A DNA stretch of 64,000 bases, from NCBI RefSeq assembly GCF_963676065.1, contig NZ_OY780933.1:2332122-2396121 (forward strand), written 5' to 3'. Positions 1,494 to 30,281 of the stretch are shown piece after piece. Under the pieces are notes generated by a model that worked only from the letters and a program-made list of their open reading frames with translations, was not told the DNA's origin and searched no databases. Made by a program: the position numbers and the translations under genes. The stretch's first letter is position 1, and every line of letters begins with the position of its first letter. Source of the stretch: Maridesulfovibrio sp. (lineage in GTDB: Bacteria; Desulfobacterota; Desulfovibrionia; Desulfovibrionales; Desulfovibrionaceae).

Positions 1494-1509
1494 AACTCGA
1501 CTTTCGGAG
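1494..1509. repeat. IS left terminal inverted repeat
   Basis: aactcgactttcggag is the exact reverse complement of 2823-2838. Confidence 0.8.
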
Positions 1510-1633
1510 ATATTTTTACAGTTTAACCAACATTCAACATGTTGAAATAAGGGCTGTTTTTAATTGAAGGGTCCTTACTGCCTTGATATTCTGTTGTTCT
1601 CACGCACCAGGAATAAAAAGGAGAAGGACTCGG

Positions 1634-2782
1634 ATGCAACGTATCTCTACCAACCACGTCCTGCAAGCCTCTGAACAACAAATTCCAAGTCGAATTGACT
1701 CTTTTTTTCAGCATTTCGGGATTGGAACCCTTGCCCATAGCTGCGGAATCACGAAAACAAAGGGAGTATCCCAAACCATTCTGTTTTCCTGCATTTTTTC
1801 TTTTCCGTTTTTCAGCCTCAATCTTTACCGATGCTTTGCAACCCAGCAGAACAAGGATTTTGCTAAAGACGCAGCCTACGATTTCTTCCGTTCAAGCCGT
1901 TTCAGTTGGCGGCGTTTCTTGCTCCGTCTGGCAGCCAAAGTCTGCGCTGTATTTCAAGAACTGACCTCGGACGACCTAGAATTGGTGTTTATGATCGATG
2001 ACTCCATCGTGCATCGTCCCCGTGCAAAAAAAATCGAGTTGCTGGCCTGTGTTTTTGATTACTCGGAAAGCAAATTTCTTAAATGTTTCCGGTTGTTGAG
2101 CTTATGTTGGTCTGACGGCAACAGCCTTGCTCCCCTAGATTTTGTCCTGTTGTCTTCTCACAATGAGAAGAAGCGAATTCTAGGTGTCACCAAGCAGGTT
2201 GATAGCCGAACCTGCGGAGCCAAGCGTTGCCAAGAAGCTATACGCAAATCCACAACTTTAATCGGCCCTATGCTGCGTCGAGCTTTATTTGCCGGAATTC
2301 GGGCCAAATATTTGCTCATGGACCGTTGGTTCGACATGCCTTCAATCATCGCTGATACAAGCGAATTTTTGCCTGTTATCTGCATGGTTAAACGCACCTC
2401 CAAAATACTTTACAGGTTTGGAGAGGAACGTTTGACCGTTGATGGAATCTTCCGCACAATCAAACAGCATCTGGATTTGGAAAAAGGCTGTCAGGCCAGA
2501 TATTTCGATGCGCTTATCGCGCACACCACCATTGTTATGATGCGGTATCTCTTCCTCGCTTTGGAACAAAGGCGAAATGACGATCCACGCATTCCCGGTC
2601 TGCTTTTACACACCTGCTGCGAAGAAATGCGCGACTTGGATTACTTGGAGTCCCTTCAACTAATCCTGATTTTAGCTTCGGTAAATTTACTGAAAAACAA
2701 GCCTGTTGCAGAGAAGTTGAGCCAAGTTATGATGGCTGAAATCCTCAAGCAAGAATTTTATATTTACGGCTTAAACAGGTAG
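1634..2782 (+). CDS. IS4-family DDE transposase (likely internally deleted or degenerate)
   Basis: ATG at 1634 follows an AGGAG RBS; the ORF track starts at TTG 1583. Motifs MIDDSIVHRPRAKKIELL, LLMDRWF, and the C-terminal LDLEKGCQARYFDALIAHTTIVMMRYLF are typical of IS4-like transposases. Confidence 0.7.
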   Translation: MQRISTNHVLQASEQQIPSRIDSFFQHFGIGTLAHSCGITKTKGVSQTILFSCIFSFPFFSLNLYRCFATQQNKDFAKDAAYDFFRSSRFSWRRFLLRLAAKVCAVFQELTSDDLELVFMIDDSIVHRPRAKKIELLACVFDYSESKFLKCFRLLSLCWSDGNSLAPLDFVLLSSHNEKKRILGVTKQVDSRTCGAKRCQEAIRKSTTLIGPMLRRALFAGIRAKYLLMDRWFDMPSIIADTSEFLPVICMVKRTSKILYRFGEERLTVDGIFRTIKQHLDLEKGCQARYFDALIAHTTIVMMRYLFLALEQRRNDDPRIPGLLLHTCCEEMRDLDYLESLQLILILASVNLLKNKPVAEKLSQVMMAEILKQEFYIYGLNR

Positions 2783-2822
2783 AAATGTCAAAGATCAAAG
2801 GGAGTTATAGAATAATCTACAA

Positions 2823-2838
2823 CTCCGAAAGTCGAGTT
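2823..2838. repeat. IS right terminal inverted repeat
   Basis: ctccgaaagtcgagtt is the exact reverse complement of 1494-1509. Confidence 0.8.
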
Positions 2839-2987
2839 TTTTAGGTAAAGAAAGATCTTATGTAATAACCTATACTTCGAAAGAAGACCGCTACAAATCC
2901 AGACAGAAGTTGTTTCGGAATGCGGTCTTAGTTTTGAAATGATTGAAGATTAAATTGCGCACTTTGGAAACTAAGCAGGGGAAATTC

Positions 2988-5453
2988 ATGGCAGAACAAG
3001 GTAGTGAACTCATAGAAAAATATGGAGCAGATTTGCTGCTTTTTACCGACAGCAGGATATTGAATGGTATTATCTGGAATTATCCCGCTTATTCGGATGA
3101 AGAGTGGGCGTTAATTTTAAAGTCCGTTTCAACAGCTGCGCGTACACGGGTTCTGGATCATCTGCCGCAGGCCAGAAGAGAGAGCGTCTCTGCTCTGAGT
3201 AAGTCAATACCTCTACCTTCACATGAGCAGTTGGCCGTTCTGATTGCCGATTTTTTAAGGTGCTATAGTTTTAGTTCTTGTCTTTTTCCCGATAAGGACT
3301 TTGATGATTTTGAGCATTTTGATAGTCCGCCGCTGAAGCCCAAATTCCTTTGGATTGAAGAATCGTACAGCTCGTTTACTGCCGACCCTGAAGACACCAT
3401 AGTTCGCTGGCTGATGATAACAAATGCCTGGCGTGAGCACGGGGGGATTGTTTTTGATTCACTCCTTGAAGCTGACATAGATATTTATACACGGGAAATA
3501 CTCATGAGAGCCATGCAGACCCCAAACAGTAAAAAGTTTGAGGTCCGGGATTTGCGTGAATCCCTGCTTGGTGAAGTTAGAAATACTCTTGAAGGAATGT
3601 CGGAACTGTTCCTTGGAATATGTAAAGGTGATAGGCCGGATAAGTTTATTGCGCTACTTGCGGATAAATTTAATCTGAAGCAGTCGGAGGTGCATCCGGG
3701 GCCAATCATGCATGAAAGCATAGTGGAAGGCCCGCAAAATACAGAGTCCGTTAATTCCATGCTCGGATTGATGGATAAAGCTTTGAATGATGGAATTCTT
3801 TCCGTTGATATTGATGTTCCTAAGATCACTTCTTCTTTTTTCCGCGATGGACTTACCCATGTGACTGACGGTTTTGAACCGGAAACACTTGAGCTTTGGG
3901 CTAAGGGGCGTATCAACCTTATTTTGCAGTATGTGGGTTGGTCTTTTGACATTGTGGAAACCGGATGCCGTTGTATTTTAGGCTCGTTTTCTCCTCATAT
4001 GACCAGAGTGGCGCTTCAGGCTCATGTTTTTGAGAAATTGCCCATGACCAGAGAAACAGGCCTGCTTCCACAAGAGGGAAACAATGAAAATAAGACTGAA
4101 TATTCCGCAATACAAGGAGATGATGGTTCCAAGTTCTTTGTGGATCAAGGCGATGATCCTGCCACCCTCTTCGGCTGGTTTGTTTTTAAATTATCTCTGG
4201 ACGAAGTGAAGTCAGGCAATCCACATGATTTTGATCAACTTTCCGTTGTTGCTGAATTGGCGTCGATGATCCCTCCTAAGCGTTGGGTTGGGATGGATTA
4301 CGTGCTTTCACAGCAGCAACGCATTGATGCTTTTCACTTAGGACTTGAATTCATAGTTCAGAGTAATGAAGAGGAAATAGGCATAAGTCTTTTGAATCTG
4401 GTCCAGAATCTTCAGCCTGATTTTGACGCACTCTCTGACAATTACACCCAATACAGGGGCATGTATCAGGAATTGGCCGGACTGAAATATTGGGACGCCT
4501 TACTTTTGGAGCGAATTGAATTTGCACAACTTCTTGGTCGGCTCAGGGCAGAAGAAATTGCATCTTTTGCTTCATCTTCATGGGGCTTTTTTGCAGCAAA
4601 TGTAGGAATGCCTGTGGGGGAACAGAGGGGGGCAGGCTGTTCATGGCAGCAGGCAAGTTCAAGTCTTCTTGCAGGTCTTGCAGACATGATTATCTCGAAT
4701 TATGATTTTAAGGTGTCAGCATGCGAGCAAAGAGACAAAAAGAGCCCTGCTGTTAGGCTTATTGATACTCTGGTCAAAAAATATGCGGATACTTTTGTCT
4801 ATGGTTCCGCTCCTGTGCATAAGAGCCTCTCCGAGAAGGTAGTTGCGGGATTGTACGTGATGGATGCGCTGGAGAGGGTCTCGGTGTTCAGCAGGCTTCA
4901 TGAGAATATAATCCTTCATGTCCTGCTGGAGCTTGAGCCGTATACAGATGATTTTGACCTGATCTGTTCTCTGCTTCCACATTTGAATCAGGAGAAGCGC
5001 GAGTCGCTTCAAACTGTTATTATTGATTCCGATTGTAAAATAGCTGTGACTTTAACCAGAGTTTTAAGTTTCGGTTTTGATCAGATGATTGAATTGTCGG
5101 ATTACCAGATTCGTGAACTGCTGAAATATGTTTCCAATGTTGATTTATGTTTGGCCCTTGCGGATGCTTCCGAGGAGTTGATAGAACTTTTTATGTCCAA
5201 CATGTCGGAAAGGGCAGGGGATATGATCAGGGAAGATATGGAAATGCAGGGTTGCAGCCTTAATCAGGAACAGGTGTTTAAGGCGAAGTATAATCTGGTA
5301 AAAGTTGTGCTGGAGTATGGTCTACTTTCATCGGAACAAGATTGCGGCCAGGATAGCAATGAGAGCATCGTGCAGCGGATTGTTGCTGTGGCCAGTGATT
5401 TTGATGATGACGACCTGTTCAGTGACCCGGACGACATCTTTAGCGAAAATTAG
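2988..5453 (+). CDS. Large soluble protein with FliG-C-like and MotA-cytoplasmic-loop-like modules; function unknown
   Basis: ATG at 2988 follows a GGGGA RBS; the ORF track starts at 2943. The C-terminal segment LALADASEELIELFMSNMSERAGDMIREDMEMQG resembles the FliG C-terminal domain. Internal GILSVDIDVPKITSSFFRDGLTHVTDGFEPE resembles the MotA TM2-TM3 loop. Acidic tail. No TM segments. Confidence 0.7.
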   Translation: MAEQGSELIEKYGADLLLFTDSRILNGIIWNYPAYSDEEWALILKSVSTAARTRVLDHLPQARRESVSALSKSIPLPSHEQLAVLIADFLRCYSFSSCLFPDKDFDDFEHFDSPPLKPKFLWIEESYSSFTADPEDTIVRWLMITNAWREHGGIVFDSLLEADIDIYTREILMRAMQTPNSKKFEVRDLRESLLGEVRNTLEGMSELFLGICKGDRPDKFIALLADKFNLKQSEVHPGPIMHESIVEGPQNTESVNSMLGLMDKALNDGILSVDIDVPKITSSFFRDGLTHVTDGFEPETLELWAKGRINLILQYVGWSFDIVETGCRCILGSFSPHMTRVALQAHVFEKLPMTRETGLLPQEGNNENKTEYSAIQGDDGSKFFVDQGDDPATLFGWFVFKLSLDEVKSGNPHDFDQLSVVAELASMIPPKRWVGMDYVLSQQQRIDAFHLGLEFIVQSNEEEIGISLLNLVQNLQPDFDALSDNYTQYRGMYQELAGLKYWDALLLERIEFAQLLGRLRAEEIASFASSSWGFFAANVGMPVGEQRGAGCSWQQASSSLLAGLADMIISNYDFKVSACEQRDKKSPAVRLIDTLVKKYADTFVYGSAPVHKSLSEKVVAGLYVMDALERVSVFSRLHENIILHVLLELEPYTDDFDLICSLLPHLNQEKRESLQTVIIDSDCKIAVTLTRVLSFGFDQMIELSDYQIRELLKYVSNVDLCLALADASEELIELFMSNMSERAGDMIREDMEMQGCSLNQEQVFKAKYNLVKVVLEYGLLSSEQDCGQDSNESIVQRIVAVASDFDDDDLFSDPDDIFSEN

Positions 5454-5498
5454 GACCAGTTGAGCTTTGTATTTATGTTTTGATTCTGGAGGTTGATC

Positions 5499-6110
5499 GT
5501 GAGCCTTGTGAGAATATTGTGTTTTGTGCTGTTAATGTTGCTTGCAGCGTGTGCCTCCCATCCGCTTGATATGTCGGATGATGAATGGGGTGCGCTCACT
5601 CTGCAACAAAAGCTTGAAGCACGTGAAAAGCAGGCTGAACTTGATTTAAAGGCCAGAGAACTGGCTGTAGAGCAGGAAAAACGAAGAAATGAGGAACGAA
5701 GAATTGCCAGAGTCAAAGAGCGTGAAGCAGATATTGCCAATGGTCTGATCGTTGAGTTCTATCCTGCTAAGGCTGCCTGTATTGGCGGCGATAAGTGCCG
5801 TCCTAGGGATGTCAATGAAATCATAATCCCTTTGCATGGGTTGTGTGCCATAGACGTTGTCCATATTTATGCCGATGACCGTGTGGGAAATCGGCATGAT
5901 GGGGTGCTTGAAGTTATGGCTGACCATTACCGTTTGGAGCGTGTCGACATCTCCAAGCGTAGCAAATGGTATCAGGTCTTTGCCGGGCGCAGGGCCCGTA
6001 ATGTGGTTTTGAAGACGGTAACTGATGATGAAGTGCAGGTTTACTGGGTCAAGGTGTTTGGTTCGCGGATTGATTCGGGCCAGATTGAATACCGGGTTAT
6101 TGAAAGGTAG
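5499..6110 (+). CDS. Lipoprotein with a charged coiled-coil segment and a C-terminal beta-rich domain; unknown function
   Basis: GTG at 5499 lies 6 nt after GGAGG. Lipobox LLAAC. E/R/K-rich stretch. 45 nt downstream of the previous gene. Confidence 0.6.
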   Translation: MSLVRILCFVLLMLLAACASHPLDMSDDEWGALTLQQKLEAREKQAELDLKARELAVEQEKRRNEERRIARVKEREADIANGLIVEFYPAKAACIGGDKCRPRDVNEIIIPLHGLCAIDVVHIYADDRVGNRHDGVLEVMADHYRLERVDISKRSKWYQVFAGRRARNVVLKTVTDDEVQVYWVKVFGSRIDSGQIEYRVIER

Positions 6111-6125
6111 AGATAGGTCGTTTTA

Positions 6126-7937
6126 ATGCTGAGTTATTTTTATATCCTTCACCGCCATCTCAAAAACATAACTCCGGTGGTTGTGGGTGTTTATACTTTT
6201 ATCCTTTTTCTGGGAGCGTTTTTCACTTTTCCTTTTTCTACTTCGCCATCAGATCTCATGGGGGTCTTTTTTTTAGGGGGGGGCGGAGCTTTAATCTTGG
6301 AAACATTGTCTTTGTTGGGCCTGATCCCTGCTTACGGCTGTGCCCCGTTTAGCGAGGGACTTATAAAGTTCGGGCTGGGGGCATTTTTTGTATGGGTTGC
6401 CTTTGATATGAGTCTTGCCGGTCAGGGAACCGCTACCATTGCTGTTATCTTTTATGTATTGACTGCTGGATTCTACGCACTCACTTTCCGTAAGCACAAA
6501 TGGTATAGTGTTGTTGCAACCGGTCCGCTCGGTTCATTTGATACTTTCATGGAAAAAATGGAATCTTCCGGGGCAGAACAATTCAAATATCTCGATAATA
6601 CGAAAGAAGGCCGCCACTATACTCTCAATAAATTTTTGGTAAATTTTAATGCTATTGAAACAGATCGCTGTACTTATACTGTGAGCAATCTGATGCCGCA
6701 GAATCTGAAATGTTTGAAAAAAATATTCGGGGAGATGGAGGGTATCACATCAATATGGGAGGGCCTTGATTTTCATAGCAACTGTCGTGTTACTAACGGC
6801 AATATCCAGCGCATATTTGATGATTCAACAGAACTTGACGAAGCTTATATCTATGGCAACGGGTTATTTCTTTCTTTACGTTCGAAAAATATTCTTTCCG
6901 GGATTCATGGTTCCCTTGAAAGGGAAGTTGGGCCGGGAAGGGGGCAGCTTCACCGGATTACCGTCAGTTTTGAACCCTATCCCCAAAAGAATGATTTTTT
7001 CCTGAACCTCAATACCCATAATCCCCAGGAGCTAGTGAAACTGCGAATAGTTAATCCTGCTGATGGTGATGAGAAAATTCAATGTCCTGAATTACTGGGG
7101 GAAAATATATCCTTTTCCGTTGTCCATGAAGGCCCGCTTGATACTTTTGGAAGTCGGTTGATTTTTAAGAAACATGGCGAAGATGGACGGGAGTATTTCC
7201 TGATCTCATACTCTTATCTTGAAGGAATTATTATCAAACCGATAAGCGGAGCCGAAGCAGCAAGTCTTCCAACTGTTTCGGTGGAAAAATACCTTGATTA
7301 CTGGAGCTGCTTTACTGCTTTGGATGCCGCTTCGAATGTTGAAGAAGAGGAGATTTTTGATCCCAATATTTTTATGGCACCGCGAGGAAACTTTATTCTT
7401 TTGGGCTATGATGAAAGTATTGATGAGCACCGTCATGCTGGAATTTTCCCGTCAGAAGGAAAAACCATTACCGAAGCTTTGAGGATAACAAAAAAATCTG
7501 ATCCAGATAATTTAGTTTATCAAGTGTATGATGAAAATGGGGACTGTCTTTTTGCTACGAACCAGAAAGCTCCTGTGAAGAGAGAGCATTTTGTGGCAAA
7601 GATGATGCGCTATAGTGGGCCCTTTTGGCATGAGTTTTTTGATGACGGCTATTGGAAGCTGCTTGTTGGAAGCTATACGTTGGCCTGGGTGGCATTAATT
7701 CCTTTGTTTGTCCCTTTTATGCAGGAGAACGGCCTGATCTTTCTGGCCTATGGTTTAATCCCTATAGCACTGGCCGGTATCCACCTGAGACTTTGGGGTG
7801 ATCTTTCACTCTATGCCACAAGCAGAGGTGGAAAGCTTAGCTGCGTTCTAGTGGGCATTTTTGGAACAATTGCCTTTACGTGTCTCTTGGCAATTTTGGT
7901 TGCTTTTCGGGTTAAATTACTCTGGTGTTTGGGCTAG
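6126..7937 (+). CDS. Polytopic membrane protein (N- and C-terminal TM bundles, about 380-aa central soluble domain); unknown function
   Basis: 603-aa ORF 15 nt after the lipoprotein gene. Hydrophobic helices at both ends. No motif I recognise. Confidence 0.6.
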   Translation: MLSYFYILHRHLKNITPVVVGVYTFILFLGAFFTFPFSTSPSDLMGVFFLGGGGALILETLSLLGLIPAYGCAPFSEGLIKFGLGAFFVWVAFDMSLAGQGTATIAVIFYVLTAGFYALTFRKHKWYSVVATGPLGSFDTFMEKMESSGAEQFKYLDNTKEGRHYTLNKFLVNFNAIETDRCTYTVSNLMPQNLKCLKKIFGEMEGITSIWEGLDFHSNCRVTNGNIQRIFDDSTELDEAYIYGNGLFLSLRSKNILSGIHGSLEREVGPGRGQLHRITVSFEPYPQKNDFFLNLNTHNPQELVKLRIVNPADGDEKIQCPELLGENISFSVVHEGPLDTFGSRLIFKKHGEDGREYFLISYSYLEGIIIKPISGAEAASLPTVSVEKYLDYWSCFTALDAASNVEEEEIFDPNIFMAPRGNFILLGYDESIDEHRHAGIFPSEGKTITEALRITKKSDPDNLVYQVYDENGDCLFATNQKAPVKREHFVAKMMRYSGPFWHEFFDDGYWKLLVGSYTLAWVALIPLFVPFMQENGLIFLAYGLIPIALAGIHLRLWGDLSLYATSRGGKLSCVLVGIFGTIAFTCLLAILVAFRVKLLWCLG

Positions 7938-10061: not shown

Positions 10062-10184
10062 CTTATAGCTGAATAAAATAACTTAAGCCAAAAGCCTTTG
10101 GGGTATTTTTGAGCGACAGCAATAATCGGCTTGCGTTGGTCAAAGTGCCTACCTTAGGTGAAACAGCCATCGAGGAATGCAGAA

Positions 10185-12206
10185 ATGGGAAACGAAAAGC
10201 ATACACATGAACATGATCATAGTCACGGTCACCATCATCATAGCCACGGGCACCATCATCATAACCACAACGATTTCACTGACTACAAGAATGCAGTCAA
10301 AGAATATCGTCAGTCATTTGCCAGTAAAAAGGATGTAATGGAGCAGGCCCCTGATCCGGCTGTACGGGACATGGTTAAATATATGGATGAGCAGGGTGTA
10401 GAAAACTGTTTTGATCGTTTCGACAAGCAGAAACCGCACTGCACCTTTGGGTTGGCAGGGGTCTGTTGTAAAATATGCTCCCTTGGTCCCTGTAAGATCA
10501 CTGAACGTTCTCCCCGTGGAACATGCGGTGCTGATGCTGATCTTATTGTTGCCCGAAATCTGGTCAGGTCGGCTGCAGGTGGCGTTGCCGCACATGGAGC
10601 TCGTGCGCGGGAGATCATTCTCACTCTGAAAAAAGCAGCAGAAGGCGATGTTAATCTGCCTATTGAAGGTGTGAATAAGGTCAAAGCTGTTGCCGACATG
10701 TTCAATCTTGATGTTAAGAACAGCACTATCGAAGAGCTGGCTGGACAAATCGCAGACATTCTTTTGGAAGATTTAAGTAGAGCAGTCCCCGGAACTCATA
10801 AGACGCTTGATGCTGTAGCTACGTATGAAAGAAAATTAGTTTGGGAGAATCTGGATTTACTTCCTGTTGGTTCATACCATGAAGTTTTCGAAGCCCTGCA
10901 TCAGACCACCGTCGGCACTCAGGGAGATTGGCGTAAAGCCATGGATCAATTCATGCGCCTTGGTGTCGCATTTTCAATGAACAGCGTTGTTGGCGGTTCT
11001 ATTGCAAGCGACTGTCTTTACGGTGTGCCTCAGCGGACCACCGTCAAAGCCAATTTGGGGGCATTGAAAACAGACACAGTAAATATTGCAGTCCATGGAC
11101 ACGCCCCTCAGATGGCAATGGAAGTGATAAAAACAGCCCGCAGTGAGAAGTTCGTTGAAATGGCGAAAGAAGCGGGAGCAACTGGTATTCAGTTTTACGG
11201 TATTTGTTGTTCCGGATTGTCATCTCTGTACAGGCTTGGAGGAGTAATTCCCCTTTCCAACGCCAACGGATCTGAACTTGTTCTCGCAACAGGTGCTCTT
11301 GATCTTTGGATGGCTGATATTCAGGAAATATTTCCGGGTATTATGGATGTTGCAAACTGCTACAAGACTGTAGTCGTGACAACTAACGAGTCAAACCGTC
11401 TGCCCGGAGCAGAGCATATCGGTTATAAACGTGACCTTTCTGATCTGGACAAACTTCCAGAAATGGCAGAGCGCATTGTTACCCGCGCAATTGAAAGCTT
11501 TAAGAATCGTCGCGATGTAAAGAGACATATTCCCGAGCATGAGGTTGAGGCTGAAGTTGGATTTAACCTTGAAACACTCAAGGCCCGCTATGGTTCACTT
11601 TCAACAATAGCCTCGGCATTGATTGAAGGAAAGATCAAGGGAATCATCAACCTCGCAGGATGCACAAACACCAGAATCGTATTTGAAAAAGCGATCGTGG
11701 ATATCGTCGATATCCTGTTGAAAAACAACGTACTGGTCTTTACCAACGGATGCGCTTCCTTTCCTATGGCCAAGTTGGGATATTGTTCCAGCAAAGGGCA
11801 GGAAAAATGCGGCGACAAGCTGCTTAGATTCCTAGGTCCTAAAATGCCTCCTGTCTGGCATTTTGGTGAATGCATAGATAATGCACACTCTGTATCTGTG
11901 TTTAGAGAAATAGCAAAGTATACCGGACGTCATTTGAAAGATCTGCCTTTTGCCGAAGTGACCCCGGAATGGTCCAATGAAAAAGGTGTGGGAGCAGCTC
12001 TCGCTTATCGCATGCTCGGTTTCAATTCCTATCACTGCGTTCATGCCCCAGTTCAAGGTTCTAAAAAAGTTGAAGAATTCCTTTATAACGGCACAAAGGA
12101 ATTGCTCGGCTCGTGCATGAACGTTGATCCCGATCCTGCAAAAGTAGCCGCAATGATCCTCAGGGATTTTGACGAAGCCAGATCTAATGTGTGCTGGCGG
12201 TCATAG
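10185..12206 (+). CDS. cooS: CooS-family (Ni-CODH/prismane family) protein, deviant: poly-His N-terminus and one cluster Cys replaced by Glu
   Basis: ATG at 10185 follows a GAGGA RBS. Motifs CTFGLAGVCCKICSLGPCKI, GTCGADA, IAVHGH, GICCSG, LAGCTN, TNGCAS, HFGECIDN. DIQEIFP occurs where canonical enzymes have D-x-Q-C. Confidence 0.85.
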   Translation: MGNEKHTHEHDHSHGHHHHSHGHHHHNHNDFTDYKNAVKEYRQSFASKKDVMEQAPDPAVRDMVKYMDEQGVENCFDRFDKQKPHCTFGLAGVCCKICSLGPCKITERSPRGTCGADADLIVARNLVRSAAGGVAAHGARAREIILTLKKAAEGDVNLPIEGVNKVKAVADMFNLDVKNSTIEELAGQIADILLEDLSRAVPGTHKTLDAVATYERKLVWENLDLLPVGSYHEVFEALHQTTVGTQGDWRKAMDQFMRLGVAFSMNSVVGGSIASDCLYGVPQRTTVKANLGALKTDTVNIAVHGHAPQMAMEVIKTARSEKFVEMAKEAGATGIQFYGICCSGLSSLYRLGGVIPLSNANGSELVLATGALDLWMADIQEIFPGIMDVANCYKTVVVTTNESNRLPGAEHIGYKRDLSDLDKLPEMAERIVTRAIESFKNRRDVKRHIPEHEVEAEVGFNLETLKARYGSLSTIASALIEGKIKGIINLAGCTNTRIVFEKAIVDIVDILLKNNVLVFTNGCASFPMAKLGYCSSKGQEKCGDKLLRFLGPKMPPVWHFGECIDNAHSVSVFREIAKYTGRHLKDLPFAEVTPEWSNEKGVGAALAYRMLGFNSYHCVHAPVQGSKKVEEFLYNGTKELLGSCMNVDPDPAKVAAMILRDFDEARSNVCWRS

Positions 12207-19234: not shown

Positions 19235-21367
19235 ATGTTCCGGTCAATCAGTACTAGAATTTCATACATAGTCGCTGCTGTTGTTGTTGCCTCAACTCTG
19301 GCTACACTGCTGTTAACCGGCTCCACCCTTGAAGATGATATGGTTGAGGCGCAGGGCCGCACTGCCCGTAATACCATCAGAATGGGCATGCTTTATCTTC
19401 AGGAAGGCTATCAGGCACTTGATCGCTACCGTGATCACGCTTTCGATGATCGCAAACAGGCCATTAAAGATGCCATGTCTATTTTTGTAGGGCAGATTGA
19501 TAATTTTTATGCCCTGTATAAGTCCGGCAAGCTCACTGAGGATCAGGCCAAGGAAGCCGCCTATCGCCTTGCCCGGCAGACCAGATATTTCAATAATGAT
19601 TATTTTTTTATTCATACGGACAAGTTGTTATCGCTTGCACACCCTAACCGGAGTCTTGAAGGGCACGATTTATCAAAACTGGTGGATAAAAACGGGTATG
19701 CTTTCGGACCGGATATGATACGTAAGGCCACAGAGGAAGGAGGAGGGTATCTGGAGCTCCTGTGGCCGCGATTAGATGAGTCCGATTCCAATTCCAAAAT
19801 TCTCTATGTAAAAGGTTATCCGCAGTGGAACTGGATTATCGGAACCGGTGCTTACGTTGATGATATTGAGGCCGCAGTAGAAAGACAGCGGAGAGATCTG
19901 ATCGCGGAAATGCGTAAAGGTTTTTCCCGGATTCGTCTTGCCGATACAGGGCGGCTTTTTATTTTTGATAATGATAAAAATGTTCTGGTGCCTCCACTCG
20001 GTGCCGGTCCTGATTTCAAAAACACCATAAACCTGAACACCGGGCATACACTGATTCATGATTTAAAAGAAGTCGGTAAGCTTGGAGAATGGCGTCTTGA
20101 TTTTAAGGTGCGCCGGCATGACGGTGAAATTGTCGATCGTCAATCGTATGTTCGTTTTTACGCTCCCATGGGCTGGTATGTGGCTTCCACTGTTCCCATG
20201 GCGGAAATTTATGCTCCGATGAAAGAATTGATCATGAAACAGGGCGCGATCAGTTTAATTATCCTTCTGCTGACAATTCTAGTAATTTATTATGTTGTCC
20301 GCAGAATCTGTTTACCTATTCGCAGTGTCTCCAAGGTAGCTTTTCATGTATCCAAGGGAGATTTGCGTGAAGCGAAAAAAGTTTTTGCCATGTCTACGGA
20401 CAAGGGACATCTGAAAAAGGTTGTTGATTCTTTTGAAACCGGTAGGGAAAAAAGGTTTGATGAAGTCGACCATCTAGTTAAATCCATTCACACCATGCTG
20501 ATGACTCTTAATTCATTGGTCAGTCAGGTTCAGATTTCCGGGGATCAGGTTGCCGGTTCCGCCCTCAAACTTGGAACCGCTATCAATCAGCTTGAAGCCG
20601 CGGTGGAGAATCAGGCTGCGGCCACACAGGAACTGGGCAGTTCTTCCCGTGAGATTTCCGCCACTTCTCAGGAGTTGGCCCGGACCATGAACGAATCAAC
20701 AACTGTAGCCGTCTCAACAGGCGAACTGGCCGCTCAGGGAGTTCGCGATCTTAATGAGATGGGGGTTACCATGGATGTCATGAGTGATGCATCCGGAGGC
20801 ATCTTTTCAAAATTGTCGGTTATTAATTCCAAGGCAGCCAATATCAGTTCGGTGGTAACTTCTATTTCTAAAATTTCAGAACAGATTAACCTGCTTTCCC
20901 TGAATGCTGCTATTGAAGCGGAAAAGGCCGGTGAGTTCGGTCAGGGATTTTCCGTGGTTGCACGGGAAATCCGTAAGCTCGCCGATCAGACTGCCATGTC
21001 TACACTTGATATTGAGAAGATTGTGGCCGAAATGCTTTCCGCCGTTTCCGCCGGGGTTATGGAAATGGATAAATTCCGCAAGCAGGTGGAAAACGGGGTC
21101 AGCAATGTAGCCGCGCTCGGCGAGGGAATCTCAGGTGTCGTCACTCAGGTACAGACTCTGACACCCCGTTTTGAATCGGTTAATGAGGGCATGCAGAACC
21201 AGAGCGAGGGTGCGGAGCAGATCAGCAAGGCCATGGTCCAGCTCAGCGAAACTTCCATTCAGACCAAGGATACTTTGGCTGAATTTGCGAGCATTACAGA
21301 GCAGCTTGCCAATTCAGTTGGCAGTCTTGAGGAAGAAGTCGCCGCATTTAGGGTTGATAAGGATTAG
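19235..21367 (+). CDS. Methyl-accepting chemotaxis protein with a Cache-type periplasmic sensor
   Basis: Cache-like NDYFFIH...GGGYLELLW...WIIGTGAYVDDIE, a TM helix, and signalling domain LLSLNAAIEAEKAGEFGQGFSVVAREIRKLADQT. Confidence 0.9.
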   Translation: MFRSISTRISYIVAAVVVASTLATLLLTGSTLEDDMVEAQGRTARNTIRMGMLYLQEGYQALDRYRDHAFDDRKQAIKDAMSIFVGQIDNFYALYKSGKLTEDQAKEAAYRLARQTRYFNNDYFFIHTDKLLSLAHPNRSLEGHDLSKLVDKNGYAFGPDMIRKATEEGGGYLELLWPRLDESDSNSKILYVKGYPQWNWIIGTGAYVDDIEAAVERQRRDLIAEMRKGFSRIRLADTGRLFIFDNDKNVLVPPLGAGPDFKNTINLNTGHTLIHDLKEVGKLGEWRLDFKVRRHDGEIVDRQSYVRFYAPMGWYVASTVPMAEIYAPMKELIMKQGAISLIILLLTILVIYYVVRRICLPIRSVSKVAFHVSKGDLREAKKVFAMSTDKGHLKKVVDSFETGREKRFDEVDHLVKSIHTMLMTLNSLVSQVQISGDQVAGSALKLGTAINQLEAAVENQAAATQELGSSSREISATSQELARTMNESTTVAVSTGELAAQGVRDLNEMGVTMDVMSDASGGIFSKLSVINSKAANISSVVTSISKISEQINLLSLNAAIEAEKAGEFGQGFSVVAREIRKLADQTAMSTLDIEKIVAEMLSAVSAGVMEMDKFRKQVENGVSNVAALGEGISGVVTQVQTLTPRFESVNEGMQNQSEGAEQISKAMVQLSETSIQTKDTLAEFASITEQLANSVGSLEEEVAAFRVDKD

Positions 21368-24288: not shown

Positions 24289-25080
24289 TTAAGGTTCCGT
24301 ATGATATTTATCTTGGAACATTTTTCTCAATTTTTTCAAGGCCTGAGAATGTAACTGTGAAACCCTGCCTTCTGTAATCTCCATAACTTCGGAGGTCTCT
24401 TTCATATTGAGTTCCTCTCCGTAGTACAGAGATAATACCAGTTTTTCTCTCGGCGTCAAATTATCAATCAGATCAGCTACCTTGTCCACTGTTTCTTGAA
24501 AAACAGCATTTTGGAAAGGTTCATCGTCTAGCTGTGAATCTTTATTGCTGGGAATATTATCATTAAAGGCATCAAGATTGACGCAGAGTTGGTTTTGCAG
24601 GGCCTCAAGTCCCTGCTGCACTTCTTTGGCAGAGAATCCGGTCGCTTCTGCAATTTGAGCGCTGGTCGGTTTTTCACCTGTTTCGTGCTCAAGTTCATGG
24701 ATGCTGTTTTCAATGGTCTTTACTTTATGCCGCAGTCCGCGTGAAAACCAGTCCATGCGCCTTAGCTCGTCAAGCATGGCACCTTTGATGCGGTTTTCCG
24801 CATAGGTTTCAAACTTGATTTTCAGCTCAGGCCGAAATTTTCCAAGTGATTCTACTAGTCCCAGACTTCCGGCACTAATCAGCTCTCCTAGCTCCACATT
24901 CTGCGGGAGCTTGGCTTTCATGCGGAGTGCAATAATACGGATTTTGGGTGAATAATGCCGTACTATCGCCTCTTGATCTGCGGGCGGAAAATCTTCCCAA
25001 TCAGTAGCCCCGGACTCTAAATTAAGCCACGGACTGTTCTTGGAAGAGAAGTTTTTTCCAGAAGAACTTGATATTACCAT
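24289..25080 (-). CDS. fliA: Flagellar sigma factor FliA (sigma-28)
   Basis: Sigma-70 region 2-4 motifs. EVMEITEGRVSQLHSQALKKLR. Confidence 0.9.
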   Translation of the reverse strand: MVISSSSGKNFSSKNSPWLNLESGATDWEDFPPADQEAIVRHYSPKIRIIALRMKAKLPQNVELGELISAGSLGLVESLGKFRPELKIKFETYAENRIKGAMLDELRRMDWFSRGLRHKVKTIENSIHELEHETGEKPTSAQIAEATGFSAKEVQQGLEALQNQLCVNLDAFNDNIPSNKDSQLDDEPFQNAVFQETVDKVADLIDNLTPREKLVLSLYYGEELNMKETSEVMEITEGRVSQLHSQALKKLRKMFQDKYHTEP

Positions 25081-25858
25081 CTAGCTCGGATGTCGCTTTC
25101 CATTTAGTTATTTTTTTAGCAGCTTCAGCAATTTGAACACAAGCAGGACTTGAGGGAGCAAAACTGCATAGCGGGGTTTGTTTAATAACCGCTTGGCGCA
25201 TGTTCTGATCGCGAGGGATAACCCCCACAAGATCCAGTGAAACTCCGCTCAGGAAATGGTCACAGGCCATGTAGAGCTTTTTGAATACTTCTTTGGCACT
25301 TTTTACGTCCGGTGCCATGTTTACCATAACCTTGAATTTGTCAACCCCGTGATTAAGCTTCATTACTTTGATCAGGGCGTAGGCATCGGTAAGGGATGTC
25401 GGCTCCGGGGTCAAAACCAGGAGGCGTTCCTGAACTGCAAGATTGAAGTACAGTACATTATCGTTAATGCCCGCTCCGGTATCGACAATAAGGTAATCAA
25501 TTTCTTCTTCAAGGTGATCCATGGCTTCCAGCAGGTCCAGTTTTTGGCCAGTAGAAAGGGAGACCATGTCGCTTACTCCGGAAGAAGCCGGGAGAATATG
25601 GAATCCGTAATCTGTCTTGTAGAGGACTTCCCTGATTCCGGTCCCTTCGTGGAAGAGGTGAAACAGGTTGTACTTGGGTGCAATACCAAGCAGAACGTCG
25701 ACATTTGCAAGGCCGAGGTCGGCATCCAGCAGCAAGACTTTCTTGCCCATGCGGCTTAAGTTGTAGGCTAGGTTTACGGAAATATTTGTCTTGCCTACCC
25801 CCCCCTTACCGGAGGTTACTGAAAATACCATGGGAAGATTGGAACTCATTTGTATCAC
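25022..25858 (-). CDS. flhG: MinD/ParA-type ATPase FlhG (FleN)
   Basis: Deviant Walker A SGKGGVGKT. LLLDADLGLANVD. Confidence 0.9.
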   Translation of the reverse strand: MIQMSSNLPMVFSVTSGKGGVGKTNISVNLAYNLSRMGKKVLLLDADLGLANVDVLLGIAPKYNLFHLFHEGTGIREVLYKTDYGFHILPASSGVSDMVSLSTGQKLDLLEAMDHLEEEIDYLIVDTGAGINDNVLYFNLAVQERLLVLTPEPTSLTDAYALIKVMKLNHGVDKFKVMVNMAPDVKSAKEVFKKLYMACDHFLSGVSLDLVGVIPRDQNMRQAVIKQTPLCSFAPSSPACVQIAEAAKKITKWKATSELDGNIKFFWKKLLFQEQSVA

Positions 25859-25951
25859 CCTATTCTTATTTATCTATACTGTTTACGTTGCCATCTGTTT
25901 TTATGCAACGAATATTGTGCTCTATTTGCCTAATTTTCCGGAAAAAGGCTT

Positions 25952-27040
25952 TTAAACAGCCTTGGCAAATTCCAGCTTTTCTTCGGTTGGGAGCTGGTGC
26001 TTGAAGACCAGTCTCCAGAAGTCTTTTTCACTGGCCGGTTTCATGCTGTTCCGCAGGCGGGAACCGTATGAAAGCAGGGAAACAGGAAGTCCGCTTTCGT
26101 AAGATGTGTTAACCAGTGCGCCGAAGTTGCAGGCTTCATCCAGTTTAGTCCAGATGAGGCTTTTTACTTTGTCGGATTTAAATTTTTTCAGGAAGGCCGT
26201 GTATTGTGCCGGGGCGTAGTATGGATTGAGGACCAGATGTACAGCGAGATCGCATGGCCCGTGCATTCCGCAGGCGGCCAGCCAGCCTTCCAGTTCCGCA
26301 TTGCCTGATAGTCCGGGCAGGTCGATAAAAACCCGGTCAAATTTTTGGCTCTCGCCGATCAGCTTGGCGAAATCTTCACGGCTGGACAGTTCCCTGAATT
26401 CAAGTCCGGAAAGGTCGGCATAGTGGCGAAGGACGAGGCGTCCTTTTCCATGTCCCTGATCTGCAGAGGCAAGGCAGATGCGTGCTGCCGGATTTTCTTT
26501 CTTTTCCTTGAGGGCTAAGCGGATGATGGTTGATGTCTTTCCTGCGCCGTGCGGTCCGGCGAGGGCCTGCAATTTCTGGGGCCAGTTGCGTGAATCAAGA
26601 GCGCGTACCGGAGCGATCTTCTCAAGCTCAGGCAGGATAGCCATGGACTTGTCACCGCGCAGTTGCTGAAAAAGGTCGAGGATGACTTTATTCTCGACGC
26701 CTTCACGCTCAAGGTATTCCAGCGCAAGGCGCTGGCGGGGGGCCAGCAGGTTCAGATTCATTTGGGGCTTCAGAAGCGCCATCATGTGTCCCTTGATCTG
26801 GTTCCATTCCTGATTCCAGTCCGGGATGTTATTCATGGCGTCATCGAGAACTTCCTCGCGTGTCTCTGCTGCCGGAGCAGGGGCTTCCTGAGTGTCAACG
26901 CCGACCATGATCTCGTGGATCTTGCGTCCATCCTCTTCAACAGATTTGTTGCTGAGGATGATAGCGTCGTCGCCGAATTCCGCCTTGATTTCGGCGAAGA
27001 CCGCTGCAGTGCTGTTACCTCTGAATGTTTTTACCCGCAT
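25952..27040 (-). CDS. flhF: Flagellar SRP-type GTPase FlhF
   Basis: GPHGAGKTST, DLPG, TKLDE. Confidence 0.9.
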   Translation of the reverse strand: MRVKTFRGNSTAAVFAEIKAEFGDDAIILSNKSVEEDGRKIHEIMVGVDTQEAPAPAAETREEVLDDAMNNIPDWNQEWNQIKGHMMALLKPQMNLNLLAPRQRLALEYLEREGVENKVILDLFQQLRGDKSMAILPELEKIAPVRALDSRNWPQKLQALAGPHGAGKTSTIIRLALKEKKENPAARICLASADQGHGKGRLVLRHYADLSGLEFRELSSREDFAKLIGESQKFDRVFIDLPGLSGNAELEGWLAACGMHGPCDLAVHLVLNPYYAPAQYTAFLKKFKSDKVKSLIWTKLDEACNFGALVNTSYESGLPVSLLSYGSRLRNSMKPASEKDFWRLVFKHQLPTEEKLEFAKAV

Positions 27041-27053
27041 GTTACCAACCTTT

Positions 27054-29141: not shown

Positions 29142-29208
29142 GATTTTGACACCCCTTTCAGGTCTATTTTACTGTGGCATTTTAACCCCGGAAGAGGTGT
29201 ACAGGCCT

Positions 29209-30270
29209 TTATTTGCGGGTAAATTTATTCAGTTTCGCAAGTATCGCCGCAACAGCCTTATAAAGTTCTTCCGGAATGATGTCACCGATCTCAACCTGTT
29301 TATACAAGGCCTGTGCCAAAGGTTTATTTTCTCGAATTGGGACTTTGTTTTCGCGGGCAACGTCCTTAATGCGTTCTGCTACTTTATCCATTCCCTTCGC
29401 TAGAACAAGCGGCGCGGGAGCTACCAATGGATCATATTTCAAGGCGATGGCGAAGTGTGTGGGGTTGGTGATGACTACGTCCGCGTTGGGCACTTCCGCC
29501 ATCATACGTTGCTGAAGGATTTCCATCATTTTTTGTTTCTGCTGCTGCTTTACTTTCGGGTCACCCTGTGACTGCTTATGTTCATCTTTGACTTCGTCCT
29601 TGGTCATCTTCATCTCTTCGTGATAATTGTAGCGTTGATACCACAGGTCTGCCAGAGCAAGAACCAGCATGGGCAGCATGGTATAGGTGACCATTTTATA
29701 TCCGATTTTCAGTATGTAAATAGCCAGCTGATGCGCATCCGTGTAGAAGAGTGGCAGGAAATTACCGACTTCATTCTTGATGACTAAGTAAGGGGCAATT
29801 CCTACGATAATCGCGAAAAGCATGCTTTTGATAAGTCTGATTGCTGTTTTGATGTCGAACATCAGCCTTTTCAGGCCCTGCATAAGATTAAACATCTTCG
29901 AAAATTTGGGCTTGAATACCTTTGTGGTCCACAGATGTCCAACCTGCAGACGCAGTACGATAAAAGCGATAAAAGCGATGAAGAGGAATAAAGGCAGCAG
30001 GATTGCAGCCAGTTTCTGAGAAGACCATTGGAACAGCTGGTAGACGGACTGCTTATCCAGTTGAGTAAAAATACCTTTGGTAAAGAACCAGTGGAAAATT
30101 TCATAGAACTGTTCGTAATAGTAGTCCATGATAACCCGCAGGCAGACGACTCCCGCAATGAGGGTCATGACCTTGCCCATCTCTTCACCTTTGGCGACAC
30201 TCCCGTCCCTACGGGCTTTATTCAGTCGTTTGGGGGTCGCCTTCTCGGTTTTACTAGGATCTTTAGACAT
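29209..30270 (-). CDS. flhB: Flagellar export protein FlhB
   Basis: KTEKATPKRL start. Autocleavage motif NPTH. Confidence 0.95.
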   Translation of the reverse strand: MSKDPSKTEKATPKRLNKARRDGSVAKGEEMGKVMTLIAGVVCLRVIMDYYYEQFYEIFHWFFTKGIFTQLDKQSVYQLFQWSSQKLAAILLPLFLFIAFIAFIVLRLQVGHLWTTKVFKPKFSKMFNLMQGLKRLMFDIKTAIRLIKSMLFAIIVGIAPYLVIKNEVGNFLPLFYTDAHQLAIYILKIGYKMVTYTMLPMLVLALADLWYQRYNYHEEMKMTKDEVKDEHKQSQGDPKVKQQQKQKMMEILQQRMMAEVPNADVVITNPTHFAIALKYDPLVAPAPLVLAKGMDKVAERIKDVARENKVPIRENKPLAQALYKQVEIGDIIPEELYKAVAAILAKLNKFTRK

Positions 30271-30281
30271 TAAGCCGCCTC

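Follow-up and report, generated by a model that had tools for sequence, protein, structure and literature searches.

A soluble Maridesulfovibrio protein assembled from both partners of the flagellar torque-generating contact

The contact between FliG and MotA is the place where ion flow turns into torque. To our knowledge, this contact has been visualized only recently, and only by means of an artificial FliG_C-MotA fusion. The fusion, an engineered C. sporogenes MotA(1-262)-FliG(239-333) chain deposited as PDB 8UCS, was used to solve the stator-rotor complex, in which two neighbouring MotA cytoplasmic domains clasp a single FliG_C between them (PMC11302681). On the stator side, the torque-generating interface (TGI) has been described as an innovation of flagellar stators only (PMC12505986). 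Soluble proteins that interfere with the FliG-MotA contact include EpsE of B. subtilis and the PilZ proteins YcgR/MotI.

Here, we describe a gene in a 64,000-nucleotide stretch of Maridesulfovibrio sp. DNA (hereafter, the window; all features given below are on the + strand) whose 821-aa product, P0001, is a soluble multidomain protein assembled from both partners of this contact. The coding sequence occupies 2988..5453, with an ATG start, an AGGGGA ribosome-binding site 6 nt upstream, and a stop codon at 5451-5453. The open reading frame is listed as 2943-5453, opening at a TTG, but the ATG at 2988 is the likely start, and this choice matches the 821-aa NCBI protein, which is named [quoted passage not shown]. 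From the N-terminus, P0001 consists of a degenerate FliG_C-like domain, a degenerate MotA interface domain (TGI#1), a second and better conserved one (TGI#2), a disordered linker, a novel 260-aa helical domain, an ARM_C/SFGF/FliG_C segment, and an acidic tail. Its AF2 model is all-helical, with an unreliable placement of the domains relative to each other (pTM 0.48). There is no transmembrane segment (the maximum Kyte-Doolittle 19-mer is 1.54), and an earlier note on this DNA, which had proposed a soluble protein resembling both the rotor and the stator face, is borne out by this value and by the FliG_C and TGI homologies. We hold the domain anatomy and the homologies, as assigned, with high confidence. 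Two hairpin-less MotA cytoplasmic domains placed between two FliG_C-type domains are an architecture new to the literature searched; in a full-text search of incomplete coverage, neither soluble MotA cytoplasmic-domain proteins nor natural FliG_C-MotA fusions were described.

The rotor partner is most clearly represented in the C-terminal 140 residues, which comprise ARM_C, an MFXF-type hinge, and the six-helix domain of FliG (PF01706; 1qc7, 3hjl, 8ucs_H). The six-helix domain (aa 698-780; 5079..5327), assigned from Pfam FliG_C, Foldseek, and a residue table, matches Pfam FliG_C at E=1.9e-19 (70.4 bits, with a cut-off of 23.3) and PDB FliG chains in a sequence search down to E=7e-10. FliG structures are also the top Foldseek matches of the modelled domain, with a TMt of 0.83 and an rmsd of 2.1 A for 1qc7 and a TMt of 0.81 for 8ucs_H. 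The identification of segment 5091-5330 as a FliG C-domain in the earlier note therefore stands, with coordinates off by about 3 codons at most, and the structural comparison with FliG that it called for has the modelled domain fitting both structures. The six-helix domain is preceded by an ARM_C-like three-helix segment (aa 651-693; 4938..5066), where the PDB FliG alignments begin (query 653-660) and where AF2 places helices at 654-692, and by the sequence SFGF (aa 694-697; 5067..5078), the counterpart of the FliG MFXF hinge, in which all family members share G696 and F697.

Within the six-helix domain, the torque helix (aa 741-757; nt 5208-5258) carries conserved R742, E749, and D750, of which the first is equivalent to R281 of E. 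coli FliG and the other two to D288-D289. Three of the five stator-contact charges (E. coli K264, R281, D288, D289, R297) are thus kept in P0001, with K264 replaced by A725 and R297 by N759. The same pattern holds across the family: R742 is found in 5 of 6 members, E/D749 in all 6, and D750 is invariant, while no member has an equivalent of K264 or R297. It had been suggested that the basic residues of the torque helix were made hydrophobic (EELIELF); we find instead that this stretch is the preceding helix and that the losses are limited to the flanking equivalents of K264 and R297.

Taken by themselves, these features might indicate a divergent FliG paralogue built into the C-ring or basal body, with its ARM_C stacked on ARM_M of an adjacent FliG and the protein forming a permanent extra structure of the Maridesulfovibrio motor, e.g., a tethered stator-like collar. 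The presence and conservation of ARM_C, the SFGF hinge, and FliG_CC, together with the rank of FliG structures among the structural matches, speak for such a paralogue. However, we give it little credence. Neither FliG_N (FliF-binding) nor FliG_M (EHPQR, FliM-binding) is matched in P0001 by Pfam at E<=1, and the full-length FliG equivalog TIGR00207 reaches 53.9 bits, with a cut-off of 226.7, and covers FliG 208-317 only. Upstream of ARM_C, the structure does not resemble FliG. Almost all relatives of the host lack the gene, which therefore cannot encode a standard motor part. FliG is also a protein of ~330 aa encoded in a fliF-fliG-fliH operon, whereas P0001 has 821 aa and its gene lies in another context. 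A further likeness to FliG is found at the N-terminus of P0001, where the six-helix domain occurs a second time in degenerate form.

The stator partner is represented by two tandem domains, TGI#2 (aa 248-350; 3729..4037), a well-conserved MotA cytoplasmic domain, and TGI#1 (aa ~130-225; 3375..3662), a degenerate copy. Direct matches of TGI#2 are borderline (E=1.5e-4 to 0.036 for NCBIfam MotP/MotA and E=0.002 for the PDB MotA chains 8ucs_C/6ysf_E), and the NCBIfam MotA/MotP scores of P0001 are 13-21 bits with cut-offs of 237-394; all direct matches of TGI#2 fall in one register (MotA 74-128). Comparison of profiles gives a clearer result. In hhalign, a TGI#2 family profile of 7 sequences matches 109 canonical MotA proteins with P=98.8% and E=5.9e-17 (reversed control, 0.1%), and a profile of 18 soluble TGI modules matches PDB MotA/PomA at E=4.5e-23 along two collinear stretches, MotA 75-149 and 222-248. 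TGI#2 scores 43.8 bits with an HMM built without P0001. The second MotA-like segment of the earlier note (3746-3936, aa 254-316) is thus part of a true MotA TGI homologue.

The two stretches are separated in MotA by the TM3-TM4 hairpin, and the module-profile alignment skips from MotA 149 to MotA 222. Because the match joins the TM2-TM3 loop straight to the post-TM4 helix, the hairpin is absent from TGI#2, and the two halves of the MotA cytoplasmic domain are contiguous in P0001. The canonical MotA at locus L096, used as a positive control, displays an ~88-residue insertion where the hairpin-less modules have none. Each TGI of P0001 corresponds to the entire cytoplasmic domain of a MotA/PomA of flagellar type (6ysf, 8ucs_C, 8brd, 6ykm) minus the TM3-TM4 hairpin, with aa 130-225 more weakly related to the whole domain than aa 248-350. 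The best matches are to Clostridium/Bacillus/PomA-type (TGI4) stators, and in the PDB the module profile matches MotA/PomA only and never ExbB, TolQ, or ZorA. In other respects the stator proteins differ from P0001: they have four TM helices, an ion channel, and a MotB partner, none of which are found in P0001, and they form a ring of five chains, whereas P0001 has its two TGI copies in one chain.

The evidence for TGI#1 comes from profiles. It matches the soluble-TGI profile over the whole module (hhalign P=94%, E=1.2e-7, 98 columns) and canonical MotA weakly (P=26%, E=7e-4; reversed controls, 0.1-0.7%), and in the AF2 model its five-helix pattern matches that of TGI#2. The first MotA-like segment that had been pointed out (3429-3518, aa 148-177) lies within this domain. 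The positions of E. coli MotA R90 and E98 are occupied by R149 and D157 in TGI#1, so both charges are kept, and by L266 and D274 in TGI#2, where the acidic residue is kept and the Arg lost. Retention of the R90-equivalent Arg varies across the family: in TGI#2 it is lost in P0001 and in its closest relative (which has I), and P0002 is without it in both copies.

The N-terminal domain (aa 12-81; 3021..3230), which has six helices in the AF2 model, is a degenerate FliG_C (six-helix CC)-like domain. In hhalign it matches the FliG_C profile with P=84% and E=7e-6 and a set of 80 canonical FliG C-termini with P=86.5% and E=4.6e-6 (reversed control, 0.1%), in agreement with the earlier description of the N-terminus as another FliG-type repeat. 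Its Arg63 is invariant, and its torque helix lacks the acidic pair.

Could these resemblances be due to chance, or reflect generic helical repeats that are not truly homologous to FliG or MotA? The borderline single-sequence MotA matches fit this explanation, as does the failure of blastp and hhalign self-comparison to detect any internal repeat in P0001, where the first TGI copy is visible to profiles only. However, the C-terminal FliG_C match lies above the Pfam cut-off, and the TGI profile matches run along two collinear stretches, with a gap that coincides exactly with the TM3-TM4 hairpin. The reversed and off-target controls for the hhalign comparisons all remained at 0.1-0.9%, and the canonical MotA at L096 behaved as a positive control should. 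We regard chance resemblance as refuted, with hardly any residual probability.

TGI#2 is followed by an acidic, poorly conserved linker (aa 351-392; 4038..4163), predicted to be disordered (pLDDT <50 for 348-386) and gapped and variable in the family alignment. The following all-alpha domain (aa 393-650; 4164..4937), specific to the family, is modelled well on its own (AF2 pLDDT 84, pTM 0.82) and has no structural relative by Foldseek (best E=0.93 in the PDB and 0.15 in BFVD), no PDB sequence match, and no Pfam match. Long Foldseek alignments to full-length FliG had raised the idea of a FliG_N/M-like region here; this was ruled out, as the domain modelled alone found no match and there is no PDB sequence or profile similarity (hhalign gives 0.2-0.3% with FliG_C and MotA profiles). 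The likewise family-specific C-terminal tail (aa 781-821; 5328..5450) has in the family alignment a conserved amphipathic helix (SNESIVQRIVAVAS), placed by AF2 at 791-803 with low pLDDT, and an acidic end (...DDDDLF...); its pI is 4.05.

The N-terminal half of P0001, with one FliG_C and two TGI domains, has the same 1:2 ratio as the pincer in which a MotA pair holds FliG_C (PMC11302681). Like P0001, the 8UCS fusion combines a MotA cytoplasmic domain and FliG_C in one chain and has one FliG_C per MotA-domain pair. Unlike P0001, it is a membrane-embedded MotA5B2 complex; P0001 is soluble, has the reverse domain order (FliG_C first), and contains extra domains. Natural soluble proteins that carry both faces could thus serve as a tractable, membrane-free model of the interface at a ratio of one FliG_C to two MotA domains.

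P0001 is not alone in this respect. Co-occurrence of FliG_C and TGI is recurrent and independent: we find one of each in P0008, one FliG_C and two TGI in P0012 and in L005:526-1581 (which matches the module HMM though left out of its building), two of each in P0013, two TGI and FliG_C in P0014, and the two domains in separate, translationally coupled genes at locus L091. Other soluble relatives are P0009 and P0011, and P0043, P0078, P0083, and P0133 are stand-alone TGI proteins. Residues 19-349 of P0001 align collinearly over 315 columns with residues 17-356 of P0012/L005:526-1581 (P=97.3%, E=2.2e-11), so that the first 350 residues of P0001 are a divergent full-length homologue of an unannotated soluble FliG_C-TGI-TGI class, which was recognised in the present analysis and is not a curated family. 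P0012-type proteins share the domain order and the hairpin-less TGI module with this part of P0001. By comparison, the first FliG_C and TGI copies are much more divergent in the P0001 family, which also adds a 470-residue C-terminal extension (the linker, the novel domain, the second FliG_C with ARM_C, and the tail). In a GTDB scan with the soluble FliG_C-TGI proteins, canonical FliG genes drowned out any other signal; they served only as an independent FliG_C profile. For proteins of this kind, now called “hypothetical”, “FliG C-terminal domain-containing” or, wrongly, “MotA”, the present analysis supplies an annotation. Such proteins would also be evidence that the flagellum-specific cytoplasmic domain of MotA exists as a mobile domain in its own right, with implications for the origin of flagellar stators from generic ion-driven motors.

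The P0001 family itself is extremely rare. It accounts for 6 clusters among 1.84 billion representative proteins, and a scan of 185,579 GTDB species genomes with family patterns returned no member. A word-index search for further members yielded P0001 and P0002 only, plasmid and phage tblastn yielded none, and the sole return of a JGI metagenome scan was a canonical FliG. Nonetheless, intact open reading frames of ~800 aa are found at 23-46% identity in five lineages, and a sixth contributes a C-terminal fragment of 440 aa (P0005); this persistence points to purifying selection.

The gene lies 150 bp downstream of an IS element (1494..2838) that has a DDE_5 transposase (1583-2782) and perfect 16-bp inverted repeats at both ends. 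After a 39-nt gap it is followed in the same direction by a gene for a 205-aa lipoprotein-like protein (5493-6110) and, 15 nt further on, by a gene for a 603-aa protein with about 7 TM helices (6126-7937); neither product has a Pfam, PADLOC, or PDB match. The three genes probably form an operon. The two downstream products had been proposed as operon partners, and this holds for the likely operon but not for a conserved partnership. The 7-TM protein is 50% identical to a homologue at locus L001, that of the closest relative, where no homologue of the lipoprotein was detectable; homologues of both are absent from L002-L004, and an HD_4 protein, another neighbour, is likewise shared with L001 only. 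A conserved operon partner for the family was accordingly rejected. The neighbourhood, made up of the IS element and the lipoprotein, 7-TM, and HD_4 genes, has no fliF-fliG-fliH cluster, and a scan of ORFs within 12 kb turned up no MotB- or OmpA-type gene (motB/pomB partner). The host, a sulfate reducer, is flagellated, with fliR, flhB, flhA, flhF, and fliA at 24-31 kb in the window. An anti-phage defence system with MotAB-like parts (Zorya, etc.) was considered as well and rejected: PADLOC has no match for P0001 or its neighbours, and the TGI profile does not match ZorA in the PDB.

What does such a protein do? We infer as its likeliest role, with a probability of roughly 40%, that P0001 acts as a brake or clutch, or sequesters stators, by competing at the rotor-stator interface. 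As one FliG_C sits between two adjacent MotA domains in the solved complex, the tandem TGI pair probably forms a pincer around a FliG_C-type domain. In the default state, the pair would hold the N-terminal FliG_C-like domain of P0001 in cis. The canonical C-terminal FliG_C, on its flexible linker, would remain available for docking into another TGI pair and would occupy MotA5B2 stator units, and an opened TGI pair might also cap FliG_C in the C-ring. Competition would then work through mimicry of the interface itself, with an effect analogous to that of EpsE or YcgR; the fold is a different one, as P0001 has no sequence or fold relation to EpsE/YcgR/MotI and no glycosyltransferase or PilZ match in Pfam or NCBIfam. 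Among the relatives, P0012 is the first gene of a polysaccharide-synthesis operon, co-transcribed with polysaccharide genes as epsE is, which recalls the clutch logic of EpsE. The specificity of the TGI for flagellar stators, the flagella of the host, and the selection on those torque-helix charges that pair with MotA R90/E98 would make the cell's own motor parts the likeliest targets. Soluble FliG_C/TGI proteins would be candidates for a new class of motor regulators based on mimicry.

Several observations count against competition at the motor. No flagellar or chemotaxis operon surrounds any of five family loci, and no sigma-28 or sigma-54 consensus was found upstream in these five; the loci L002 and L003 look monocistronic and sigma-70-driven. 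The equivalents of K264 and R297 and, in TGI#2 of P0001 and its closest relative and in both copies of P0002, that of R90 are lost, the AF2 inter-domain arrangement is unreliable, and most relatives also have non-flagellar neighbourhoods. The rarity of the family would be unusual for a core motor regulator and likewise weighs against the mechanism.

Some of these observations favor a close rival, which we consider rather unlikely in its own right: a non-flagellar use of the borrowed FliG_C:TGI contact as an interaction module. Through cis closure or head-to-tail/domain-swapped oligomers, the contact would build or switch a non-flagellar cytoplasmic assembly whose output would come from the novel 260-aa domain and the acidic tail. 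Besides the lack of flagellar genes at all family loci and most related ones and the loss of the R90 equivalent in TGI#2, this explanation can draw on the largest well-folded domain of P0001 (aa 393-650), which is without any relative, and on L091, a membrane-free set of FliM-like, FliN-FliG_C, and stand-alone TGI proteins that suggests an autonomous soluble system. However, FliG_C and TGI domains otherwise occur at the flagellar torque interface only, the C-terminal FliG_C keeps MotA-contacting charges, the host has a flagellar system, and no candidate alternative machine is encoded nearby.

More broadly, we tentatively entertain the possibility that the FliG_C-TGI-TGI unit reproduces the rotor-stator contact in a soluble, self-contained form and that P0001, a competitor at that contact in our preferred reading, belongs to a broad undescribed class of TGI-derived cytoplasmic proteins. 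Its members could be mimicry inhibitors or chaperones of stator-rotor engagement, or could form a separate membrane-free, possibly CheY-controlled switch assembly. The class would also take in stand-alone TGI proteins, tandem TGI proteins, FliG_C+TGI fusions, and operons pairing them with FliM-like and FliN-FliG_C proteins. As a side observation, the genes next to P0003 include a Pfam “MamC” match, P-type ATPases, FeoA, and FUR, a possible link to magnetotaxis or iron.

By sequence, P0001, an 821-aa protein encoded in the window, is neither a FliG nor a MotA, yet from each of the two it contains a bona fide homologue of the interacting domain. Its building blocks are already known; what is undescribed is the soluble form of MotA's torque-generating interface (TGI), its fusion to FliG_C and a further domain of 260 residues. 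The gene lies in a single long open reading frame at 2943-5453 (+), which would encode 836 aa if a TTG start were used. The ATG at 2988, with AGGGGA upstream at the right spacing, gives exactly the NCBI protein P0001, which sits on a 4.2-Mb contig under the name 'FliG C-terminal domain-containing protein [Maridesulfovibrio sp.]'. Residues are numbered on the 821-aa protein (nucleotide = 2988 + 3 x (aa - 1)). P0001 is acidic (pI 4.5), and a scan of the whole protein found no hydrophobic 19-mer above a KD of 1.54. The AlphaFold2 model, built from a shallow alignment of six sequences, is helical throughout (mean pLDDT 70.7, pTM 0.48). Against the MotA models of NCBIfam the protein scores 13-21 bits (cut-offs 237-394), and it has neither transmembrane (TM) helices nor a MotB partner. 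Against TIGR00207 it scores 53.9 bits (cut-off 226.7). FliG_N and FliG_M are absent, so that incorporation into the C-ring as a FliG paralogue appears quite improbable.

The earlier note had described the C-terminus as FliG_C-like, and this domain is genuine. Pfam FliG_C matches at E=1.9e-19 (70.4 bits, cut-off 23.3), and a phmmer search of the PDB returned eleven FliG sequences (best E=7e-10), whose alignments begin at aa 653-660 and therefore cover ARM_C and the hinge; SFGF at aa 694-697 is the MFXF hinge of P0001. With the P0001 model as Foldseek query, the top 16 matches were all FliG, and the isolated C-terminal domain of the model superposed on 1qc7 with TMt 0.83 (rmsd 2.1 A) and on 8ucs_H with TMt 0.81. 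According to the same note, hydrophobic residues (EELIELF) had taken the place of basic ones in the torque helix; that segment is the preceding helix. Mapped through T. maritima alignments and residue pairs quoted in PMC12505986, the torque helix is aa 741-757, with R742 standing for E. coli R281 and E749-D750 for D288-D289; the sole losses are the flanking counterparts of K264 and R297 (A725 and N759). Among the six family members (P0001-P0006), R742 is kept in five, position 749 is acidic in all and D750 is invariant.

Two internal segments had been likened to MotA, with profile comparison proposed as a check. For the second, aa 248-350 (TGI#2), single-sequence matches are borderline but consistent: NCBIfam MotP at E=1.5e-4, three MotA models at 0.004-0.036, and the PDB MotA chains 8ucs_C and 6ysf_E at E=0.002, all direct MotA matches sharing one register that places aa 248-302 on MotA 74-128. 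A two-sequence profile strengthens the MotA match to E=4.8e-4, and an HMM from three other TGI-module proteins, the window protein left out, scores 43.8 bits on P0001, at aa 252-346. The comparison of seven family-type sequences with a profile built from 109 canonical MotA proteins bears out the resemblance (P=98.8%, E=5.9e-17; reversed control 0.1%). Against the PDB, a profile of 18 modules retrieves only MotA/PomA (C. sporogenes E=4.5e-23, 9lu9 E=1.6e-15, PomA E=1e-14, C. jejuni E=1.4e-11), and ExbB, TolQ and ZorA are not matched even at E<=10. The matches form two collinear pieces, profile positions 3-77 on MotA 75-149 (the TM2-TM3 loop) and 75-101 on MotA 222-248 (the post-TM4 helix); the module is thus the entire cytoplasmic domain of MotA, the TM3-TM4 hairpin having been cut out. 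A canonical MotA (in L096) gives, as expected, a match split around the hairpin. On these alignments the segment is a true homologue of the MotA cytoplasmic domain. It corresponds to the 'torque-generating interface', described as the structural innovation that sets flagellar stators apart from ExbB, TolQ and AglR in a paper that does not mention soluble forms (PMC12505986).

The first MotA-like segment falls inside aa ~130-225 (TGI#1), a degenerate copy of the module. It matches the soluble-TGI profile over 98 columns, covering the whole module (P=94%, E=1.2e-7), and canonical MotA more weakly (P=26%, E=7e-4; reversed controls 0.1-0.7%); the model gives it a five-helix pattern equal to that of TGI#2. 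The suggestion that the N-terminus is another FliG-type repeat also held, since aa 12-81, modelled as six helices, match FliG_C at P=84-86.5% (E about 5e-6; reversed control 0.1%). Off-target profile comparisons (TGI with FliG_C, the N-terminus with TGI, aa 393-650 with either) stayed at 0.2-0.3%. Residues 19-349 are collinear in one alignment with residues 17-356 of 363 in FliG_C-TGI-TGI proteins of the P0012 type (P=97.3%, E=2.2e-11, 315 columns).

An acidic, variable linker with predicted disorder (aa 351-392) leads to aa 393-650, which modelled alone reach good confidence (pLDDT 84, pTM 0.82). Neither the PDB (best E=0.93) nor BFVD (best E=0.15) offers a structural relative for this domain, and sequence relatives are absent from the PDB and Pfam. 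Long Foldseek alignments to full-length FliG had raised the possibility that it is FliG_N/M-like; as the domain alone finds no such match, those alignments are no sign of FliG_N/M-like domains. The protein ends in a family-specific tail (window 5328-5450, aa 781-821), in which a conserved amphipathic helix (SNxSIVxRIIS) leads into the acidic end ...EG(E/D)(E/D)DLF-COOH, which reads DFDDDDLFSDPDDIFSEN in the window protein and recurs at the C-termini of P0002, P0003 and P0005. The tail looks like a short docking motif.

The family is rare. An exhaustive HMMER scan of the N-terminal 650 residues against 1.84 billion representative proteins returned 15 at E<=0.001, namely the six family members and nine proteins that match only around aa 250-350 and carry one or two copies of the ~100-residue module each; four of the nine (P0008, P0012, P0013, P0014) also have a strong Pfam FliG_C. 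Among about 15 billion proteins the family amounts to six clusters at 50% identity. Its patterns were found in 0 of 185,579 GTDB species genomes, and searches of plasmids and phages did not find it.

In the window, an IS element at 1494-2838 lies upstream of the P0001 gene, stops 150 bp short of it and separates it from a lytic transglycosylase gene (119-1315, SLT + MltC_N). The element carries a DDE_5 transposase ORF (1583-2782) and perfect terminal inverted repeats of 16 bp (AACTCGACTTTCGGAG; 1494-1509 and 2823-2838). A sigma-70-like match at 2785-2813 is directed outward to the P0001 gene. Downstream follow a lipoprotein-like gene (39-nt gap) and, after 15 nt, a 7-TM gene at 6126-7937 (+), conserved at L001:16976-18832, the locus of the closest relative P0002 (603/618 aa, 50% identity). 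In the 7-TM product a soluble domain of some 380 aa is flanked by about four N-terminal and three C-terminal TM helices, and the protein has no matches in Pfam, PADLOC or PDB sequences; the 3' end of its gene overlaps by 4 nt that of a convergent HD_4 gene, 72% identical between the window and L001. Both genes are common only to the window and P0002 (45% identical to P0001), and the P0003, P0004 and P0006 genes stand alone among nif, opp, FUR or ferredoxin genes; the family therefore has no conserved partner and no flagellar-operon context. No sigma-28 or sigma-54 motifs were found upstream of these three genes, and two family loci (L002, L003) have sigma-70-like promoters and upstream terminators at the family gene. 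Upstream of P0003 and divergent from it, L002:1445-9399 holds two P-type ATPases, HMA_2, FeoA, FUR and small membrane proteins, one of them a 109-aa match to Pfam 'MamC', and resembles a ferrosome- or magnetosome-type iron-related cluster; at L003, FUR and 77-aa genes are kept nearby.

Judging from its genes, the host is flagellated: an export and regulation cluster on the - strand (24289-31085) comprises fliR (30282-31085), flhB (29209-30270), flhA (27054-29141), a flhF-like SRP GTPase gene (25952-27040), ORF 25022-25858 and a sigma-28-type (fliA) sigma factor gene (24289-25080). There are also two MCP genes, at 19235-21367 and 60711-62516. Another gene of the window, at 10158-12206 (+), encodes a protein of the Prismane/CO-dehydrogenase family whose N-terminus is unusually rich in His (HTHEHDHSHGHHHHSHGHHHHNH).

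With the anatomy and homology of P0001 established, its function can be considered against the published interface, in which FliG_C is bound solely between two MotA cytoplasmic domains that lie close together ('pincer grip') and the charged ends of the torque helix touch the two neighbouring MotA chains (PMC11302681). One FliG_C with two TGI, the unit that recurs in nature, has the stoichiometry of this structure, from which we infer that TGI#1 and TGI#2 probably form a pincer for a FliG_C-type domain. At the MotA R90/E98 positions TGI#1 keeps an Arg and an acidic residue (R149, D157) and TGI#2 the acidic residue only (L266, D274), a pattern compatible with an asymmetric pincer making one contact per side; the pattern is not universal in the family, since in P0002 neither copy has the Arg. 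The canonical FliG_C at the C-terminus, carried on a disordered linker with its MotA-contacting charges conserved, is the leading candidate for a trans interaction, whether with genuine stator units or with the TGI pair of a second molecule. We tentatively prefer interference at the host rotor-stator interface (probability about 0.4). The main rival, a non-flagellar assembly that merely reuses the FliG_C:TGI contact, seems to us only somewhat less likely.

Soluble TGI modules extend well beyond the family. They occur as stand-alone, hairpin-less proteins of 110-144 aa (P0043, P0078, P0083, P0085, P0125, P0133), in tandem (P0007, P0020) and in several independent architectures with FliG_C: 1+1 in P0008, 1+2 in P0012 and L005:526-1581 (the latter left out of every model built), a Zn-ribbon plus 2+2 in P0013, and two TGI followed at a distance by FliG_C in P0014. 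Source annotations call these proteins hypothetical or, wrongly, 'MotA', and a full-text literature search of incomplete coverage found no description of them. At L091:252-5077 (Logan SRR28370465), and with the same genes at L092, translationally coupled genes form an operon for, in order, a Zn-ribbon/TPR protein (469 aa), a FliM-like protein (292 aa), a fusion of two FliMN_C with FliG_C (500 aa), a stand-alone soluble TGI (132 aa) and an uncharacterised protein (211 aa). The TGI gene overlaps the 3' end of the FliN-FliG_C fusion gene, itself preceded by the FliM-like gene, whose product begins with an apparent CheY-binding-type motif (MGDDVLSQNEINDLLSD); no membrane or flagellar structural genes lie within 10 kb. 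From its gene content L091 looks like a soluble 'switch-complex-like' set. P0012 (L093:144-7475, L094, L095) heads an operon in which, after a 10-bp gap, three methyltransferases, a Polysacc_synt flippase and a double GT4 glycosyltransferase follow, an arrangement reminiscent of the B. subtilis eps operon, which encodes the EpsE clutch, or else of an island for flagellin glycosylation. At L005:526-2709, tandem paralogues (351-aa FliG_C-TGI-TGI and 237-aa FliG_C-TGI, with a 93-aa ORF between) adjoin glycoside hydrolase genes. P0038 (211 aa, NCBI source, 48-kb contig) is a MotA-like protein with TM1-TM2, a normal TGI loop and the post-TM4 helix, and with most of TM3-TM4 absent; it could be an intermediate toward the hairpin-less soluble module, a pseudogene or an assembly artefact.
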